Made by a program: the position numbers and the translations under genes. From a virus (Duplodnaviria > Caudoviricetes), in the IMG/VR virus record IMGVR_UViG_3300020042_004016, positions 1 through 25,813 of that record: 25,813 nt of DNA; one strand, 5' to 3'. Positions within the stretch are counted from its first letter, which is position 1. Each line of letters begins with the position of its first letter. Positions 1 through 25,753 of this stretch are shown in pieces. Under the pieces are notes generated by a model. It ran no database searches. It saw nothing but the letters and a program-made list of their open reading frames with translations, and was not told where the DNA came from.

Positions 1-50
1 TTTTTTAATTTATTTTTAATTTATTTTATAACTTGTTGAAAATCAAGCAT

Positions 51-82
51 AAAAAAAAGCCGTCTGAATAAACAAACGACTT
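51..82 (-). terminator. Intrinsic terminator at the end of the late operon / putative sRNA
   Basis: The - strand reads AAGTCGTTTG-TTTATT-CAGACGGCTT, a 10-bp stem with 2 G-U pairs running into a U tract. Confidence 0.8.
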
Positions 83-111
83 AATTAACCTTAAAAACAC
101 AATATGGAAAA
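51..111 (-). ncRNA. Putative ~55-60 nt trans-acting antisense small RNA
   Basis: Bounded by TATATTTG (119-112) and a terminator. Its 5' part TTTTCCATATTGTGTTTTT is complementary to the erf leader and start (23728-23747) with a single bulge. Confidence 0.55.
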
Positions 112-119
112 CAAATATA
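112..119 (-). promoter_or_regulatory. Bacteroidota-type -7 promoter element
   Basis: TATATTTG matches TAnnTTTG and lies just after the stop of 127..321. No clear -33 TTG at canonical spacing. Confidence 0.55.
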
Positions 120-126
120 GTTATTA

Positions 127-321
127 TTATTTATCTATTTTCTTATTCCAAACATTTATTCCTATTGCTGTTGCGCTGTAACCTAAGAACATTAAAACGA
201 TTTCGTAATGAAATCCACACAAAGCAACTCCAACCGCCACCCAGAACGCTGTAAACGACGCTAATCGCTTCTGCTCAAACTTTCCGTTGGGAGCGAGTGT
301 ATCGAGAATTATTTTTTTCAT
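127..321 (-). CDS. Small two-TM membrane protein, holin-like
   Basis: 64 aa with two hydrophobic stretches (FTAFWVAVGVALCGF; IVLMFLGYSATAIGINVW) and a basic C-terminus; last gene of the late operon. Confidence 0.55.
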   Translation of the reverse strand: MKKIILDTLAPNGKFEQKRLASFTAFWVAVGVALCGFHYEIVLMFLGYSATAIGINVWNKKIDK

Positions 322-541
322 TAGGTAAAATTGCGATTAATCGTTTTGGTATTTCAAAAGTATTATTTACGTGGCGTTGAATCAAAACCCTATCTTCGTA
401 ACAATCGTATAATTTCGCTTCAATCTTTTCTATTTTAGCTTCGTTTTTTAAAGTCGCTAAATACAAGTAAACAATTGCTCCAATAAAAAAGAAATTTTTA
501 GCACCGTATTTTTGTAGTAATTCTAATCCGTCCTTAATCAT
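275..541 (-). CDS. Hypothetical membrane-anchored protein (possible lysis accessory)
   Basis: 88 aa; one N-terminal TM (FFFIGAIVYLYLATL) followed by a coiled-coil-like segment; overlaps both neighbours. Confidence 0.6.
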   Translation of the reverse strand: MIKDGLELLQKYGAKNFFFIGAIVYLYLATLKNEAKIEKIEAKLYDCYEDRVLIQRHVNNTFEIPKRLIAILPNEKNNSRYTRSQRKV

Positions 542-5729: not shown

Positions 5730-5756
5730 AAACTATTAAAGTGTAATTCTGTTGCA
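5730..5756 (-). promoter_or_regulatory. Putative late promoter TGCAAC-N14-ATAGTTT
   Basis: One of four copies; immediately after a terminator and 7 nt before the ATG. Confidence 0.75.
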
Positions 5757-5757
5757 T

Positions 5758-5785
5758 AAAAAAAGGGTTACATTTCTGCAACCCT
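5758..5785 (-). terminator. Intrinsic terminator after the major tail gene
   Basis: AGGGTTGCA-GAAA-TGTAACCCT followed by a U tract. Confidence 0.88.
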
Positions 5786-5812
5786 CTTTCTATGGAGACA
5801 ATCAAAACAAAT

Positions 5813-8907: not shown

Positions 8908-9906
8908 TTATTTATTTAAAGCGTGATATAAATATTGGCTTTCTTCCGTGTGTTCTTTACCAGTCATTAAACGACCGTCTTTATCTTTATGTGTTTCTCC
9001 GTCCCAAATTTTACCGTCAATAGTATAATGGATTTGACCCTCTTCAAGTTCTTGCTTTCTAATTTGCTCTAATTTTCTACTTGCCCACTCAATACCTGCA
9101 TCGCCACCCCAACAAAGCCACATCAATCTTCCGCAACCGTCCCCTAATTCCTTTTGTGAATTTTCTTTGTGACGTGCAAAACTTGCCATCCGTGCGATTG
9201 TTTCACGGCTTATGTTTTGTCCGTTTGCCAACATATTGGCTCTTTTTTTTCCTACGGGTGTTCCACAATCACCCCACCCGTTTTCCTCAACCCAACGAAG
9301 TGCTATCTTTGCATTTTCCGTTGCTTGTTCTGGGTAGTCGTTGTATGTTTCTAAGTTGATTTCTTTGCGTAACAATTCTGCTACTTTCTCACGTGCTGAC
9401 ATTTCGTAACGTTCTGCAAAATAACCCTCGATGCTGAAACCTTTTAATTCGCCGTCTTTTACTTTTTTCCACGTTTCGTCGTTATCAACTTTCATTGCAA
9501 TCATCCACGTTCCTTTTGGTAAATCGAAACCGTATAATTTAGATTTATCCATTTCGGCATCTTCAATAATCCACGATTCTACGATTGTCATTCCGTCAAC
9601 TTTAACAGCGTGTTGCTCCGTTGCGTTTTGATGTTGACCTCGCATAAATACCAACTCACTTGCACGTTTTACCGTTGCCTCGGAAAAGAATATTTCGAAC
9701 TCTTTATCTTTATCTTTACGGTAAATTTTCTTATTTGGAATTAAAGCCGCACCTAAAACAATCCGCTTTTCATCAATTGCTTTAAGTTCAACAAAGTCTT
9801 TTGAAAGTGCAATAAAATTTTCTTCCATTGCAGGTTTTTCAACAAGTGAAACAGCAAAAACACCATCTTTCTTTTCGTCCTTAATTACTAATTCGTAAAC
9901 TTCCAT
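8908..9906 (-). CDS. XkdF-like prohead serine protease with two appended domains
   Basis: AVSLVEKPAMEENF, GAALIPNK.IYR, ESW, LPKGTW and KGFSIEG motifs, followed by ~160 extra residues. Confidence 0.8.
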   Translation of the reverse strand: MEVYELVIKDEKKDGVFAVSLVEKPAMEENFIALSKDFVELKAIDEKRIVLGAALIPNKKIYRKDKDKEFEIFFSEATVKRASELVFMRGQHQNATEQHAVKVDGMTIVESWIIEDAEMDKSKLYGFDLPKGTWMIAMKVDNDETWKKVKDGELKGFSIEGYFAERYEMSAREKVAELLRKEINLETYNDYPEQATENAKIALRWVEENGWGDCGTPVGKKRANMLANGQNISRETIARMASFARHKENSQKELGDGCGRLMWLCWGGDAGIEWASRKLEQIRKQELEEGQIHYTIDGKIWDGETHKDKDGRLMTGKEHTEESQYLYHALNK

Positions 9907-17925: not shown

Positions 17926-18274
17926 AACTATTAAATACTTTTTTTAGTTCACTAATCCTATCTAATAAGCAACTACCACAAGTTGTAAATTCAGCGTGTT
18001 TGTTGAACGTGCTTGTGTAAATTTGGTTTAATCGGTATTGTACTGTTGGAACAACTGAACCTCTTGTAACTTCAAAAAATTCCTTTAGAAAGTTGTAATC
18101 TTGTTCGCTTAAACAGTTAGGTTTTGAATAAGGGAATAGTTTGTTTAACGCTTCCTTTCGTTGTTCGCAACCGCAGTCAGTTCCTGCTACAAATTTAACA
18201 AGTGCTTTTATTCCCGTTGCTGTTGTGATTTGGTCGATAGTATCCCCTAATCCTTGTGCTTTTTTTCGTGCCAT
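17888..18274 (-). CDS. Hypothetical Cys-containing protein
   Basis: 128 aa; GLGDTI..IT.ATGIK, DCGC and CGSC motifs suggest metal binding. Confidence 0.75.
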   Translation of the reverse strand: MARKKAQGLGDTIDQITTATGIKALVKFVAGTDCGCEQRKEALNKLFPYSKPNCLSEQDYNFLKEFFEVTRGSVVPTVQYRLNQIYTSTFNKHAEFTTCGSCLLDRISELKKVFNSYVQENIGGQQDT

Positions 18275-18798
18275 TATATCAATTCTAAATCGTTATTAAT
18301 TAAATCTAAATAATCGTCTCCACAATTAATTCTAATCTTTTCTTTACATTCCCCTATTACTTCAAAGATTGAACGTAAACTAATATCCGTTCCGTTGGCT
18401 ATATCTCGCATCGAATGGTTGCCAGTAAGATACAATCTAAATAGTGTTTGGTCGTAACTATGCCAGTTGTTTATTTCTATGTTAATCTTTGCTCTAAATC
18501 TATTTTGTGCTTCGTAAAATTCGCTATTATCAACGTCTGCAATTTCCAAAGGTAAATTATTTATCTTAGATATTTGCTTTTTTGCTTTTATAAAATTTAA
18601 GAATATAGATTTAAGGGTTAAGTGAATAAAGTATTGGTTTATTTTTCCGTCAACGATTATGTCTTCAGGTCGCTTGTTTCGGTCTAATCGCAAGTACATT
18701 TCTTGTACCAAATCTTCAGCGTAAAAATACTCGCCAAACTTGTTAATCGTTCGGACGTAATCTTTATGGTGTTTAGCTATTTCGCCTAACCATTCCAT
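18274..18798 (-). CDS. Phage-encoded ECF-like RNA polymerase sigma factor
   Basis: Region-2 signature AEDLVQEMYL and region-4 HTH SMRDIANGTDISLRSIF in 174 aa. Confidence 0.8.
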   Translation of the reverse strand: MEWLGEIAKHHKDYVRTINKFGEYFYAEDLVQEMYLRLDRNKRPEDIIVDGKINQYFIHLTLKSIFLNFIKAKKQISKINNLPLEIADVDNSEFYEAQNRFRAKINIEINNWHSYDQTLFRLYLTGNHSMRDIANGTDISLRSIFEVIGECKEKIRINCGDDYLDLINNDLELI

Positions 18799-19751: not shown

Positions 19752-19963
19752 TGTTGTATTTGTATTTCGTAATCTGCAAAACTTTCGTTATCGTCTAAAT
19801 AACCGCTTAACTTTACTAAAAGTAATCCTTTTTCTTCTGCTTGTTGAATAAACTTTTTTAAACATCTTTGGGTTAATAAATTGCTTTTATCGAAGTGTTT
19901 AAACTTAATACAGAACTCTTCGTATTTATCTAAACTTAGTTCAAATGTTAAATTGTCTGTCAT
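19748..19963 (-). CDS. Hypothetical protein
   Basis: 71 aa; ATGA overlaps at both ends. Confidence 0.65.
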   Translation of the reverse strand: MTDNLTFELSLDKYEEFCIKFKHFDKSNLLTQRCLKKFIQQAEEKGLLLVKLSGYLDDNESFADYEIQIQQ

Positions 19964-20091
19964 ATCGTTTCTATTTTAAATTCACGTGAATAATTACCAG
20001 TTGCAATTAGTTGTTTCTTTTTCCAAAGTGCTAATTGACGGCTCGGAAAATACCAAACTTGAAAGTTAGCGTAAATTAGTTTATAAGTCAT
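19960..20091 (-). CDS. Small protein (43 aa) not in the ORF track
   Basis: MTYKLIYANFQVWYFPSRQLALWKKKQLIATGNYSREFKIETI*; ATGA overlaps at both ends. Confidence 0.7.
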   Translation of the reverse strand: MTYKLIYANFQVWYFPSRQLALWKKKQLIATGNYSREFKIETI

Positions 20092-20417: not shown

Positions 20418-21841
20418 ATTCCTGCTTTTTTATTTAGTTCGTCCCAAATTTCAACTTTCTTTGTTTTTTCTACAATAAAGAATTTCAAAACTCCACTTGA
20501 CGTTCTTTCTTCAAATGGAATATTATAAAATTGCAAATAAGCTTTTAAATTAATTGTTAAACGGTTTTGAGTATATCCAAACTTTTTTAATTCTGGATAA
20601 GAAATCATAAATTTATCATAAATATCTTTAATTGAAACCCAATCGTTTTTGGTAATTGTTTCAACAAATGTAAATAATTCATTTCCAATTTTATCTTTTA
20701 GCTTTCTAATTCCTAAATTCTTAGGTGCTGATTTCACCAAACCACTTGTTAAATATTTCTTTACGCATTCAATCATATAATTATCAAATCGCGCCCATTC
20801 TTGAGCGTCCCAATCGTTAAATAATTCATTCTTAAAATAGTCTTTAGGTGTGTTATTTGCATTAAAGAAAGTACTTAGTTCAACTTCAAACTTTCGTGCT
20901 TCGTGTGAACCTGAATCGCCCTTTACAGTGTAATTTGTAGTAATTAAAATCTTTGGGCTTTCTTCAATTGGTAAATGAATTGCATCTTTACCTTTGTATT
21001 CAATTGTTAAACCCTCCGTAATTACGCTAAATAGTTTTTCAAATGGAAAGTTTCTTATAATATCGTCAAAAACTAAAACTTGGCAATCCGTTGAAACACT
21101 TTGATAAGGAAAAGATTTTCCAAAGCTAAACGTTTTTCCGTCAATAGATTGAACTTTCTTAAGGTTCTTTAAAGCATTCCAAAATAAACCTTTACCGCTC
21201 CTACCGTTTGGTTCATCTGAAATCATTTCATCGTTTAAAACTATTGCAAAGTTATCTGTTTTTGATTTATACGAGTGAATTAAGTAACCTATAATAGATT
21301 GAAACGTATTATATCTGTTTACATCTTCACCGCTAATTTTCCAAATAAATTCACGATACTGCGATTTATGGTGGTCGCATTCGGTATAATCACGTTTAAT
21401 AATTTGGTCTTTCCATATTGAAATACTTACATCGTTGTATTCAATTAATTCACGTTTATCTTTTGTAGTTTTTACAATACAATTTTTATAAAACAAATAG
21501 CTTGTATCTCGGTCGTCTTTGAATATTTCAATATCAATACTATTTATCATTGATAAAAATTCACGTTTAAAAAACTTTAAGTTACCAGACATAAGATTAA
21601 AAACCCTATCTTCAATATTATTATTTTCAATGTAATCTAAAACGAAATCCTTTACATCAACTTCGTTTATAATTTCTAAAAATATACCGTTCTTTTGAAT
21701 TATAACAAATGAACTTGAAGCATCTTTTGTTGGTTTATATTTATAAAAATTATTATCTGAAAGAAATTGTTTAAATAACTTATTGTTTAACGATGGAACT
21801 CCTTTTTCAGTAAAACTCCAAAACTCTATTTGTTTATTCAT
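20414..21841 (-). CDS. SF3/D5-like P-loop helicase (primase-helicase C-terminal part)
   Basis: Walker A NGRSGKG, Walker B VLVFDD, motif C ILITTN, and an ARKF arginine-finger-like segment. Confidence 0.8.
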   Translation of the reverse strand: MNKQIEFWSFTEKGVPSLNNKLFKQFLSDNNFYKYKPTKDASSSFVIIQKNGIFLEIINEVDVKDFVLDYIENNNIEDRVFNLMSGNLKFFKREFLSMINSIDIEIFKDDRDTSYLFYKNCIVKTTKDKRELIEYNDVSISIWKDQIIKRDYTECDHHKSQYREFIWKISGEDVNRYNTFQSIIGYLIHSYKSKTDNFAIVLNDEMISDEPNGRSGKGLFWNALKNLKKVQSIDGKTFSFGKSFPYQSVSTDCQVLVFDDIIRNFPFEKLFSVITEGLTIEYKGKDAIHLPIEESPKILITTNYTVKGDSGSHEARKFEVELSTFFNANNTPKDYFKNELFNDWDAQEWARFDNYMIECVKKYLTSGLVKSAPKNLGIRKLKDKIGNELFTFVETITKNDWVSIKDIYDKFMISYPELKKFGYTQNRLTINLKAYLQFYNIPFEERTSSGVLKFFIVEKTKKVEIWDELNKKAGI

Positions 21842-22099: not shown

Positions 22100-22224
22100 C
22101 CCGAACAATTTTAAAAGATAAAAGCCCATTAATCTTTCGTGGTTCGGGCACTACTTAATTAATGAGCTTTCAAGAATACTTTCTGTTACTCTTTGCTGAT
22201 AAACCGAACTATCAACATTAACGT
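22100..22224 (-). ncRNA. Structured 5' leader with two hairpins and complementary loops
   Basis: Hairpin 22216-22195 (loop region GTTCGG); hairpin 22170-22121 (apical loop CCCGAAC); GTTCGGG at 22106-22100, 1 nt before the ATG. Confidence 0.65.
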
Positions 22225-22227
22225 CCA

Positions 22228-22235
22228 CAAATATA
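22228..22235 (-). promoter_or_regulatory. Bacteroidota-type -7 promoter element
   Basis: TATATTTG directly upstream of the structured leader. Confidence 0.65.
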
Positions 22236-22256
22236 AAAACAATTTTTAATATAAAC

Positions 22257-22580
22257 ATAGGAAAAGTTTAAAAAAGTTTTAATAAAAAAGTTTTACTACT
22301 TAACTATTTGATATTTAAGAACTTACAAACCAATAGGAAAACTTCATTTTACAAACTTTTACTATCTAAAATATTGTTAATCAATTACTTAACTACAAAA
22401 AGTAAAAGTTTGCATCGAATTTTAAAAAAATATTTTGCCGAACATTCCGTTATATTATAAAGAGTTGGGTTTTCACTCAAAACTTTTACTTTTCGCTGTA
22501 ACTCATTGAACATCAATACTAAATATAGGAAAAGTTTGCTCTTAAAAACTTTTCTAAACTTTTATAGTTTTACTATTTTA
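22257..22580. repeat. Putative replication origin: three inverted-repeat modules plus AAAAGTTT-type iterons
   Basis: Arm pairs at 22289-97/22335-43, 22353-63/22401-11 and 22480-90/22527-37 with spacers of 37, 37 and 36 bp; direct repeat ATAGGAAAAGTTT at 22257 and 22525; non-coding and upstream of the helicase operon. Confidence 0.65.
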
Positions 22581-22606
22581 GTTGAATGTTGCGAAAATAA
22601 CGCATA

Positions 22607-22636
22607 AAAAAACCCCTACAACTATTTGCAGGGGTT
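22607..22636 (-). terminator. Intrinsic terminator of the recombination operon
   Basis: AACCCCTGCAA-ATAG-TTGTAGGGGTT followed by a U tract, ~20 nt after the stop of 22655..23128. Confidence 0.85.
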
Positions 22637-22654
22637 AAATTAATTCAAATCGTG

Positions 22655-23128
22655 TTACCTGAATTTAACCATCAAACTATCTTTATTATAGCTAATTGAT
22701 ACTTTCGGAACTTCAACGCCCTCGTTATCGAATAGCATTGTTTGTTTCTGCGCAACCTTTAAAAGTTCCTCGCGTGCTTTTAAATTAGCTTGTAAGTTAG
22801 TGTAAACCAAATCTTCTGAATAGTTTAATTTCTTTGCTCCGTCTTTACGTGTAAATTCTACGTTTCCGAAAGTAAAAGTTTTCGCCGTGTATTTTTCCGC
22901 TTCGTCACGTGCCATTTCATCAATCTTAACTTTTGCTTCCTTAAATAGTTTTTCAAGTTTGTTAAATGAAGCAAACGCATCTAAGGGGTTTACTACTCCA
23001 TTTTCAACGGCTTCAACTATTGCGTTAATACCTTGCGTTGTTTTCTCGATAACGTTCTTCGGCTGTGCGGTTTCGTAATCGTGCTGTTTTGCTTGTTGGT
23101 CAATATCGACCTGTTCTAAATGTTCCAT
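22655..23128 (-). CDS. Hypothetical protein of the recombination module
   Basis: 157 aa, helical; GVVNPLDA and GVEVPKVS motifs; downstream of erf. Confidence 0.75.
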   Translation of the reverse strand: MEHLEQVDIDQQAKQHDYETAQPKNVIEKTTQGINAIVEAVENGVVNPLDAFASFNKLEKLFKEAKVKIDEMARDEAEKYTAKTFTFGNVEFTRKDGAKKLNYSEDLVYTNLQANLKAREELLKVAQKQTMLFDNEGVEVPKVSISYNKDSLMVKFR

Positions 23129-23130
23129 AT

Positions 23131-23226
23131 TTATTGTTTGTTTTTAGCTCGTAAATAATTCAAATATAATTCAATGTTAAAATGTCCTCGCTTATTCCAG
23201 TAACTTTCGATATCTGCTAAATTCAT
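23131..23226 (-). CDS. Small peptide (31 aa) not in the ORF track
   Basis: MNLADIESYWNKRGHFNIELYLNYLRAKNKQ*; ATGA overlap with erf; stop 2 nt before the next ATG. Confidence 0.6.
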   Translation of the reverse strand: MNLADIESYWNKRGHFNIELYLNYLRAKNKQ

Positions 23227-23735
23227 TTCTTAAGATTTAAAAGTTCAATGTTCTGAGTTCCTGTAAATATAAACTTTTCCTTAGCTTGTTCAATGGTTCT
23301 TTTACCGTCTAAAATAGCTTGCTTAATAGTTTCGAACGTTGGCGCGTCGCATTCAATCTTTTGCACTTTAACAGGTTGCGAAGCGTGTTGCCCGTCGTCG
23401 TCGATTGCTTGCAAAGTTAAAAGTGACAAAGTGTAACGACGAAAATAGGTAATTTGACTACCGAGTGCTTGGGCTGTAAGTCCTGGAGTTAAATCAATGT
23501 AGCTTTCTACAAATGTAGCATCTTCAACGTTTGTTATTACGGTGAATACCTTGCCGTCTTTAATCGGTTGTAAAAGCAATAAACCCTTTTCAAGTAGTAT
23601 CGGTTCAACCGCATCGATTAAAGCGTTTAAATCGGCATAAGTGTTTTTAAAATGCGGGTTTTTAGCATTCTTTGCTACTTTTCCGATTTCTTGTTTTGCT
23701 TCGTAAAGCTTTTGATAAATGTTTTTCTTTTCCAT
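23223..23735 (-). CDS. erf: ERF-family single-strand annealing protein
   Basis: KNAKNPHFKNTYADL and Q.LGSQITYFRRYTL...DDDG signature. Confidence 0.92.
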   Translation of the reverse strand: MEKKNIYQKLYEAKQEIGKVAKNAKNPHFKNTYADLNALIDAVEPILLEKGLLLLQPIKDGKVFTVITNVEDATFVESYIDLTPGLTAQALGSQITYFRRYTLSLLTLQAIDDDGQHASQPVKVQKIECDAPTFETIKQAILDGKRTIEQAKEKFIFTGTQNIELLNLKK

Positions 23736-23749
23736 AATTGTGTTTTTTA

Positions 23750-23766: not shown

Positions 23767-23800
23767 AACCGTTCATCGCTTGGTTATGTGATGAACGGTT
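23767..23800. terminator. Strong hairpin between ssb and erf (terminator or operator)
   Basis: AACCGTTCATC-N12-GATGAACGGTT, a perfect 11-bp inverted repeat with only a weak U tract. Confidence 0.55.
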
Positions 23801-25499: not shown

Positions 25500-25624
25500 T
25501 TGTCGTAAACAATTAAAGGTTTAATTAACTCGATTATTTTTGCTTTGTTGAATTTTGGAACTGTAACAATTAGCTTTGTTCCATCTGTTACTTTTTTGCG
25601 TCCTGCGTTTCTGGTGTTTTTCAT
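25496..25624 (-). CDS. Small basic putative DNA-binding protein (42 aa) not in the ORF track
   Basis: MKNTRNAGRKKVTDGTKLIVTVPKFNKAKIIELIKPLIVYDK*; RxAGRK motif followed by a strand-helix pattern; ATGA overlaps at both ends. Confidence 0.65.
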   Translation of the reverse strand: MKNTRNAGRKKVTDGTKLIVTVPKFNKAKIIELIKPLIVYDK

Positions 25625-25701
25625 TTTGTTTTAAGGGTTAAAATTTTAATAGTTGCTACTATTGAGTAGATAATTAATAGGTAAACGATTGTTCCGCTCA
25701 T
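25621..25701 (-). CDS. Single-TM peptide (26 aa) not in the ORF track
   Basis: MSGTIVYLLIIYSIVATIKILTLKTK*; leader AAAACAAACACA; first ORF after the promoter. Confidence 0.55.
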   Translation of the reverse strand: MSGTIVYLLIIYSIVATIKILTLKTK

Positions 25702-25723
25702 TGTGTTTGTTTTAAAGTGTTCA

Positions 25724-25753
25724 CAAAAATAAGTATATTTTATTAATAAACAA
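25724..25753 (-). promoter_or_regulatory. Host-sigma early promoter TTG-N19-TATTTTTG
   Basis: Matches the Flavobacterium/Bacteroides -33/-7 consensus and lies directly after a terminator. Confidence 0.65.

Follow-up and report, generated by a model that had tools for sequence, protein, structure and literature searches.

A conserved FopS-like unit at the late/early border of Bacteroidota phage genomes, probably a small RNA gene directed at the phage's own early genes

Genes and features at the locus

The window, which is the whole 25.8-kb virus record IMGVR_UViG_3300020042_004016 (25,813 nucleotides; linear, 81% complete), has all its recognisable genes on the − strand, namely a methyltransferase, SSB, erf, a helicase-like gene, the terminase, and head and tail genes. 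The best cultured matches of the terminase and Erf are Flavobacterium, Elizabethkingia, and Nonlabens phages (44–49% identity), which points to a host that is probably a Flavobacterium-like bacterium. The features relevant here are as follows:

51..82, − strand: intrinsic terminator by fold prediction, with a 10-bp stem (82-57) and an eight-U tract (58-51)
84..95, − strand: UUUAAGGUUAAU stretch, the same as the FopS consensus in the Rfam alignment; predicted to be a second arm that pairs with AACCUUAA-type leaders
93..107, − strand: unpaired seed, with CAU (anti-AUG) at 106-104 followed by a GU/U-rich anti-leader; the 5′ part is unpaired in the centroid fold
112..119, − strand: predicted −7 promoter box TATATTTG of the Bacteroidota housekeeping-sigma, TAnnTTTG type, six bases past the stop codon that ends the last late gene
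127..321, − strand: last late gene, 64 aa, hydrophobic, no family match; relatives that keep the unit have other genes in its place
18274..18798, − strand: sigma-70-like protein preceding the terminase (Atlas feature score 0.99, a lead); context, outside the unit
23115..23150, − strand: start of the gene that follows erf (157 aa), a weaker predicted target (−13.1 kcal/mol)
23223..23735, − strand: Erf-family ssDNA annealing protein, 170 aa (phrog_2324, E 3.6e-31; PF04404)
23728..23747, − strand: erf leader and first codons, the best predicted target in the contig; with the −7 box of erf itself at 23757-23750, the leader would be ∼10 nt long
25690..25725, − strand: start region of the gene that comes first after the early promoter at 25731, the second-best predicted target (−17.0 kcal/mol)

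The 64-aa last late gene may be holin-like, and the sigma-70-like protein, which gave no match in Pfam and PHROG searches, is a probable late-gene activator. An endolysin was not recognised at the late end of the window (1-330), and clade-2 relatives carry one just before the unit. The 475-aa protein at 20414-21841 matches an 804-position PHROG family in its C-terminal part only, and the region upstream of its gene (22100-22650) is long, very AT-rich, non-coding, and possibly an origin. Immediately before the box of the erf promoter comes an inverted repeat (23768-23800), a possible operator or terminator, whose left arm is found in 16 of 16 close erf loci and recurs ahead of early promoters in relatives.

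The original prediction had outlined a − strand transcript of ∼55 nt made up of a promoter box, 25 nt (positions 111-87), and a terminator, and this outline was confirmed by the box at 119-112, the hairpin at 82-57, and the U8 tract at 58-51. The box was assigned with the TAnnTTTG-type consensus given in PMC7366714; a canonical −33 box was not seen upstream of it, just as none was found in F. johnsoniae in the same source. In a true FopS copy on the gut phage contig L116, the Rfam model starts at the fifth base past the box, and the predicted +1 of the unit is by this token 107, with a predicted RNA of 57 nt (107 to 51). Bases 111-108 would then lie outside the promoter-derived RNA and be there to pair only in a read-through late transcript, the terminator at 82-51 being likely to end late transcription as well. 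The fold of the unit has a z-score of −2.99. A small gene on the + strand, for which the seed would be a leader, was rejected and has next to no probability: a 25-codon frame does open at 104, but the matching frame varies from 3 to 39 codons across 34 contigs and encodes no conserved peptide, and the promoter and terminator run in the opposite direction.

Conservation of the unit and similar known RNAs

The unit occupies the late/early border and is kept behind differing upstream genes. Among 31 listed loci of an 88-aa late gene, 29 have downstream DNA, and the unit directly follows the last gene in 27 of these; at L097, it lies further downstream, and at L084, a different promoter-terminator unit is found instead. 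A scan anchored on the terminator only gave 37 stretches, some of them behind another last gene and many from contigs already counted; 32 are the unit, and each of the 32 has the box and the anti-AUG seed. In 42 related contigs read whole, most of which were picked because the unit had already been seen there, the detector found it in 34 and looser settings added G115 (35/42), with the other seven giving no unit at either setting. The copy number is one in 33 of the 34 contigs and two in G126, and the distance from the unit to the first called early gene is 110–430 nt in every case. The detector gave a single match in 800 kb of Flavobacteriaceae DNA. A TAnnTT-type box, which the detector requires, is found in every one of the 34 detected units, in ten variants that mostly differ at the two free positions; all 51 aligned copies have CAUA, partly owing to detector design, and the box-to-CAU spacing is 4–8 nt (5–6 nt in 28 of 34). 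The terminator stem shows double-sided changes at five of its ten pairs (26 sequences).

A metagenome scan found two stretches, apparently of the same relative as G006 (the nearest relative), and neither extends to erf. Compared with cultured phages by blastn, the unit gave short chance matches only, and a narrow pattern searched in 185,579 genomes had 33 matches, none with a terminator. Model R1, which had no base pairs, was used only for placing units; model R2, applied to 101 Flavobacteriaceae genomes with 50 candidates scored in each, gave 14 matches in 13 genomes, mostly plain terminators, although two of the 14 (L422 and L426) are seed-like.

These R2 matches, like the frequency of U-rich tails ahead of terminators and the missing −33 box, are what would be seen if the unit were just a late terminator whose U-rich tail came from an early leader copied in inverted orientation, with the box and CAU as functionless relics. 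This is distinctly unlikely, as the box-like pattern, the CAU spacing, and the seed outlast exchange of both the upstream gene and the terminator stem, and a −33 box was not found in F. johnsoniae either.

Other RNA elements were seen in the window and its relatives. In L083 (10503-10595), as also in L009, L088, L092, L094, and L110, a second box-to-terminator unit of ∼90 nt lies directly behind the first, with no Rfam family near cut-off. In L108, a permuted tmRNA (777-1039; RF04321, 46.6 bits, cut-off 47) is inserted right behind the unit, so that the slot collects small RNA genes. In the window itself, a conserved 3′ UTR with a terminator follows a 183-aa gene (5750-5812, − strand) and contains CUCCAUA; it is near-identical in L082, L085, L087, L091, L105, L107, and L111, and no own start paired with it better than −11.5 kcal/mol.

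At the gathering level, Rfam had no match in the window, L233, or L420. The best match of the unit is FopS (RF04319), aligned over the full length of the model (1–71 of 71) at 23.1 bits against a cut-off of 56, with 24.6 bits for L083. FopS and GibS, which the original prediction had not named, are the closest precedent: both block start regions in Bacteroides thetaiotaomicron (PMC11697453; PMC7366714), FopS represses susC starts, and the protein RbpB binds the 5′ part of FopS (PMC11697453). The unit shares with FopS a housekeeping-sigma box, a single-stranded 5′ start-codon seed, an intrinsic terminator, and the identical UUUAAGGUUAAU. The sigma-ABfr promoter of FopS is matched by the predicted −7 box but not by a −33 box. 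Of the FopS seed R1/R1′, for which the model begins GUGUUUUUCAU, only the U-tract and CAU are shared; the U-tract precedes the predicted +1, and CAU stands at the very 5′ end rather than at positions 9–11. FopS has 12–15 chromosomal copies in Bacteroidaceae and susC as a target, whereas the unit is single-copy on apparently non-integrating phages with phage early genes as its predicted targets. The unit is thus not a FopS member, failing on score, seed, and copy number. The FopS model also matches the antisense of the start at 25624, and the likeness may be convergent because both RNAs mirror the generic Bacteroidota start. One phage with a true FopS is mentioned in PMC11697453, and apparent true FopS copies were seen here on the viral contigs L116, L145, and L175.

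The 12-nt identity with the FopS consensus, together with the binding of RbpB to the 5′ part of FopS, would also suit an RNA that acts as a decoy for an RbpB-like host protein or as a FopS mimic and does not repress by base pairing. Such a role is very unlikely, since the UUUAAGGUUAAU stretch varies within the family and can itself pair with leaders, no chromosomal family was found to mimic, and the tracking of leaders by the seed (see below) would be left unexplained.

Among phage RNAs, P1 C4 is a short RNA that lowers a phage gene by pairing in lysogeny control, grouped with OOP and sar. Lambda OOP and P22 sar are lysogeny-control antisense RNAs, OOP being cis-encoded with one target, according to PMC5415839. 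They resemble the unit as short phage RNAs that lower phage gene expression by pairing (predicted for the unit), yet they are encoded opposite their target with full complementarity, while the unit is in trans, imperfect, and predicted to have several targets with non-Shine-Dalgarno leaders, on phages with no integrase detected. Lambda PreS (LPR1) is likewise a phage-encoded trans-acting sRNA of infection but, according to the preprint, acts on host genes and raises dnaN translation (bioRxiv 10.1101/2024.10.31.621285), in contrast to the phage early targets predicted here. No description of this phage RNA family or of class-wide self-silencing was found in open-access papers and bioRxiv.

Predicted pairing with erf and other early starts

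Gene starts were taken from a simple ORF rule, and duplex energies are from duplexfold, with accessibility left out. The 19-nt pairing with the erf start, claimed from the sequence at the outset, is present as described: − strand 111-93 is complementary to 23747-23728 at 19 of 20 positions with one bulge. The three shorter matches were also located, at 23123, 25700, and 25627, and TTCCATATT was found additionally at 21411, within a gene. A match with at most one edit is uncommon among shuffled 19-mers (found for 20 of 5000 after dinucleotide shuffling and for 4 of 5000 when ATG is kept fixed), and the duplex of −20.0 kcal/mol is the best of 39 starts in the window, equalled by 4/300 and 3/300 shuffles. 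If +1 is 107, however, the duplex falls to −15.7 kcal/mol, which 34 of 300 shuffles equal, and if both RNAs start where their boxes predict, 13–14 bp at −13 to −14 kcal/mol are left. The single-genome evidence for erf pairing is therefore real but modest. Across the comparisons made, seed complementarity to start regions exceeds chance, and it is weaker for erf alone with +1 at 107. The separation of 23.6 kb once put between the unit and erf is due to the cut of the contig, as in relatives erf lies 5.1–7.8 kb downstream of the unit.

The comparative evidence is broader. Early starts were defined as those within 7 kb downstream of the unit. In all 24 genomes that are 24 kb or longer, the seed pairs more strongly with its own early starts than with the late ones (mean −1.9 kcal/mol), and the same holds for 23 of 24 when recomputed with the later +1. 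The difference is singly significant in 15 of the 24 and not in the window alone (p 0.23), while CAT-fixed shuffled seeds give an early-late gap of −0.02. Part of the preference is generic, because a true FopS seed also favours early starts (−0.7 to −0.8). In a double-centred matrix of own versus other genomes, early starts score −1.3 (permutation p 5e-5) and late starts 0.0; this signal is mainly a two-clade block, with p 0.01 (mean) and 0.055 (top five) within clade 1, to which the window belongs, and no signal within clade 2. The top three targets fall in the first 7 kb in 73 of 99 cases, against a background of 565/1457. The leaders differ accordingly between clades: ATT precedes ATG at 72/226 early starts in the CAUAAU clade versus 20/148 and 8/165 elsewhere, and a CGA leader motif occurs at 27/165 and 21/148 early starts versus 3/226 in the CAUAAU clade. 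The seeds thus track clade-specific early leaders, on few independent lineages. The predicted targets lie on the same strand 0.2–8 kb from the unit, in duplexes that contain bulges or G-U pairs. For several seeds, no target in their own genome goes below −13 kcal/mol. When both strands are flipped, scores are equal (10/21), and this orientation test therefore lends no support to selection at the RNA level over likeness at the DNA level, a result that also suits a plain terminator.

Seeds of the window type usually find their best match in an early gene of 116 aa, 0.5–0.7 kb downstream of the unit, with duplexes of −19.5 to −23.6 kcal/mol in G003, G005, G006, and G119; in G006, a two-arm duplex (−22.0) combines an anti-AUG arm with a UAAGGUU arm. 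This gene is absent from the window, its slot being in the part of the early region that the contig seems to be missing. Among distinct pairs, a CCAU seed is accompanied by AUGG in 6 of 9 and a UCAU seed by AUGA in 12 of 12; on the tree, this covariation comes down to three independent pairs without reaching significance, and the gene is linked to the unit. The 116-aa protein belongs to no named family, and most top targets have no PHROG family. The start of the 157-aa gene pairs at −17.8 and −18.8 kcal/mol in two relatives sharing the seed type, and no seed-start covariation was found for it (p 0.36).

Comparative data thus fit an anti-leader sRNA against early genes, as first proposed, and speak against erf as its dedicated target. 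A dedicated erf silencer or immunity switch would agree with erf being the best start in the window, with the own-versus-other result for erf (p 0.008, 12 non-independent pairs), and with the top-three rank of erf-like genes in 8 of 13 clade-1 contigs. Their rank is that high in only 2 of 13 other contigs (10/26 in all), and three of three near-complete relatives tested (G003, G004, and G007; 93–98% complete) keep the unit and lack erf, G003 even with the seed of the window. Most close relatives have UUUCAUAUUCG-type seeds, while their erf starts with AUGG. The immunity role has no support: a tyrosine integrase was not found in any of five near-complete relatives, which makes timing likelier than immunity. 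The erf-dedicated reading accordingly retains only a very slim probability.

The RNA may instead mainly silence host mRNAs with strong A-rich starts (transporters, receptors, or defence), with the phage leaders copying these. Host mRNAs may also be hit, since what the seed mirrors is a generic Bacteroidota gene start: 73 of 120 viral matches to the seed pattern are opposite-strand ORF starts, some host-type starts pair with the window seed at −19 to −23 kcal/mol, and FopS on susC and PreS in lambda act on host genes in the sources cited above. Against a reference of 684 host-type starts from eight surrogate Flavobacteriaceae genomes, 39/370 own early starts exceed the top-2% level versus 6/413 late starts. 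This fivefold enrichment of own early over host-type starts, the clade-specific preference for own early rather than late starts, and the fit of a cultured phage's seed to its own GUG start (below) make a mainly host-directed RNA unlikely, although a host of about 3000 genes would be expected to have some 60 starts at the top-2% level, which weighs against own early genes as the targets.

In Flavobacterium phage Fpv5 (NC_031921.1), an unannotated box, short body, and terminator lie in the same slot (19888-19965), by eye not alignable to the unit of the window. The CAC seed forms a 14-bp duplex (−22.7 kcal/mol) on an in-frame GUG at 21178 of the early gene gp21, the best of 156 candidate starts and reached by none of 250 shuffles; the match was noticed post hoc in one of five cultured phages examined. 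The GUG lies 57 nt upstream of the annotated gp21 start, and a PHROG profile covers the extension; the protein has a weak exonuclease match (E 1e-5), and the gp21 start is probably mis-annotated by 19 codons. An identical unit is present in 29 records. Nonlabens phage P12024L has a promoter-terminator unit after its holin (∼9825-9895) that begins like FopS with AAU in place of CAU, and no strong target was found for this unit, which lacks CAU. In FCL-2, FL-1, and P12002S, no comparable unit was found within 12.7 kb of each.

A proposed early-translation timer and its meaning

The reading favoured here, with a probability of about 0.58, is that the unit is an sRNA gene whose 5′ end pairs with the phage's own early starts, erf among them, and blocks their translation; it is probably a conserved FopS-like sRNA turned on the phage's own early genes, with erf as one likely target and not its purpose. 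Host polymerase would transcribe the unit from phage entry alongside the early genes, as it shares the box type of the early promoters, and the RNA, being short and hairpin-capped, would accumulate. Its free 5′ seed would occlude the AUG and the A-rich leader positions of early mRNAs, which Bacteroidota use for initiation according to PMC7366714. Late transcripts, whose activator is probably the sigma-like protein at 18274-18798, would stop at this terminator too and contribute further 3′ ends carrying the seed, so that early translation may become a pulse, and the target set would differ with the early gene cassette of each phage. Bacteroidota initiate translation without Shine-Dalgarno pairing, and for this reason, one antisense seed can hit the leader signature of a whole gene class.

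More tentatively, and at somewhat less than even odds, lytic Bacteroidota phages may widely time their development without a protein, by a tiny RNA encoded at the late/early border that mirrors and co-evolves with their early starts (anti-GUG in Fpv5) and ends early translation. The 29 Fpv5-group records with an identical unit make this idea testable in a cultured system, and the unit could serve as a compact knock-down cassette for flavobacteria. If true, the proposal would amount to a regulatory logic of its own, the class-wide self-silencing of early genes by one 57-nt RNA, and would explain why many uncultured phage genomes have a small gap that is conserved.
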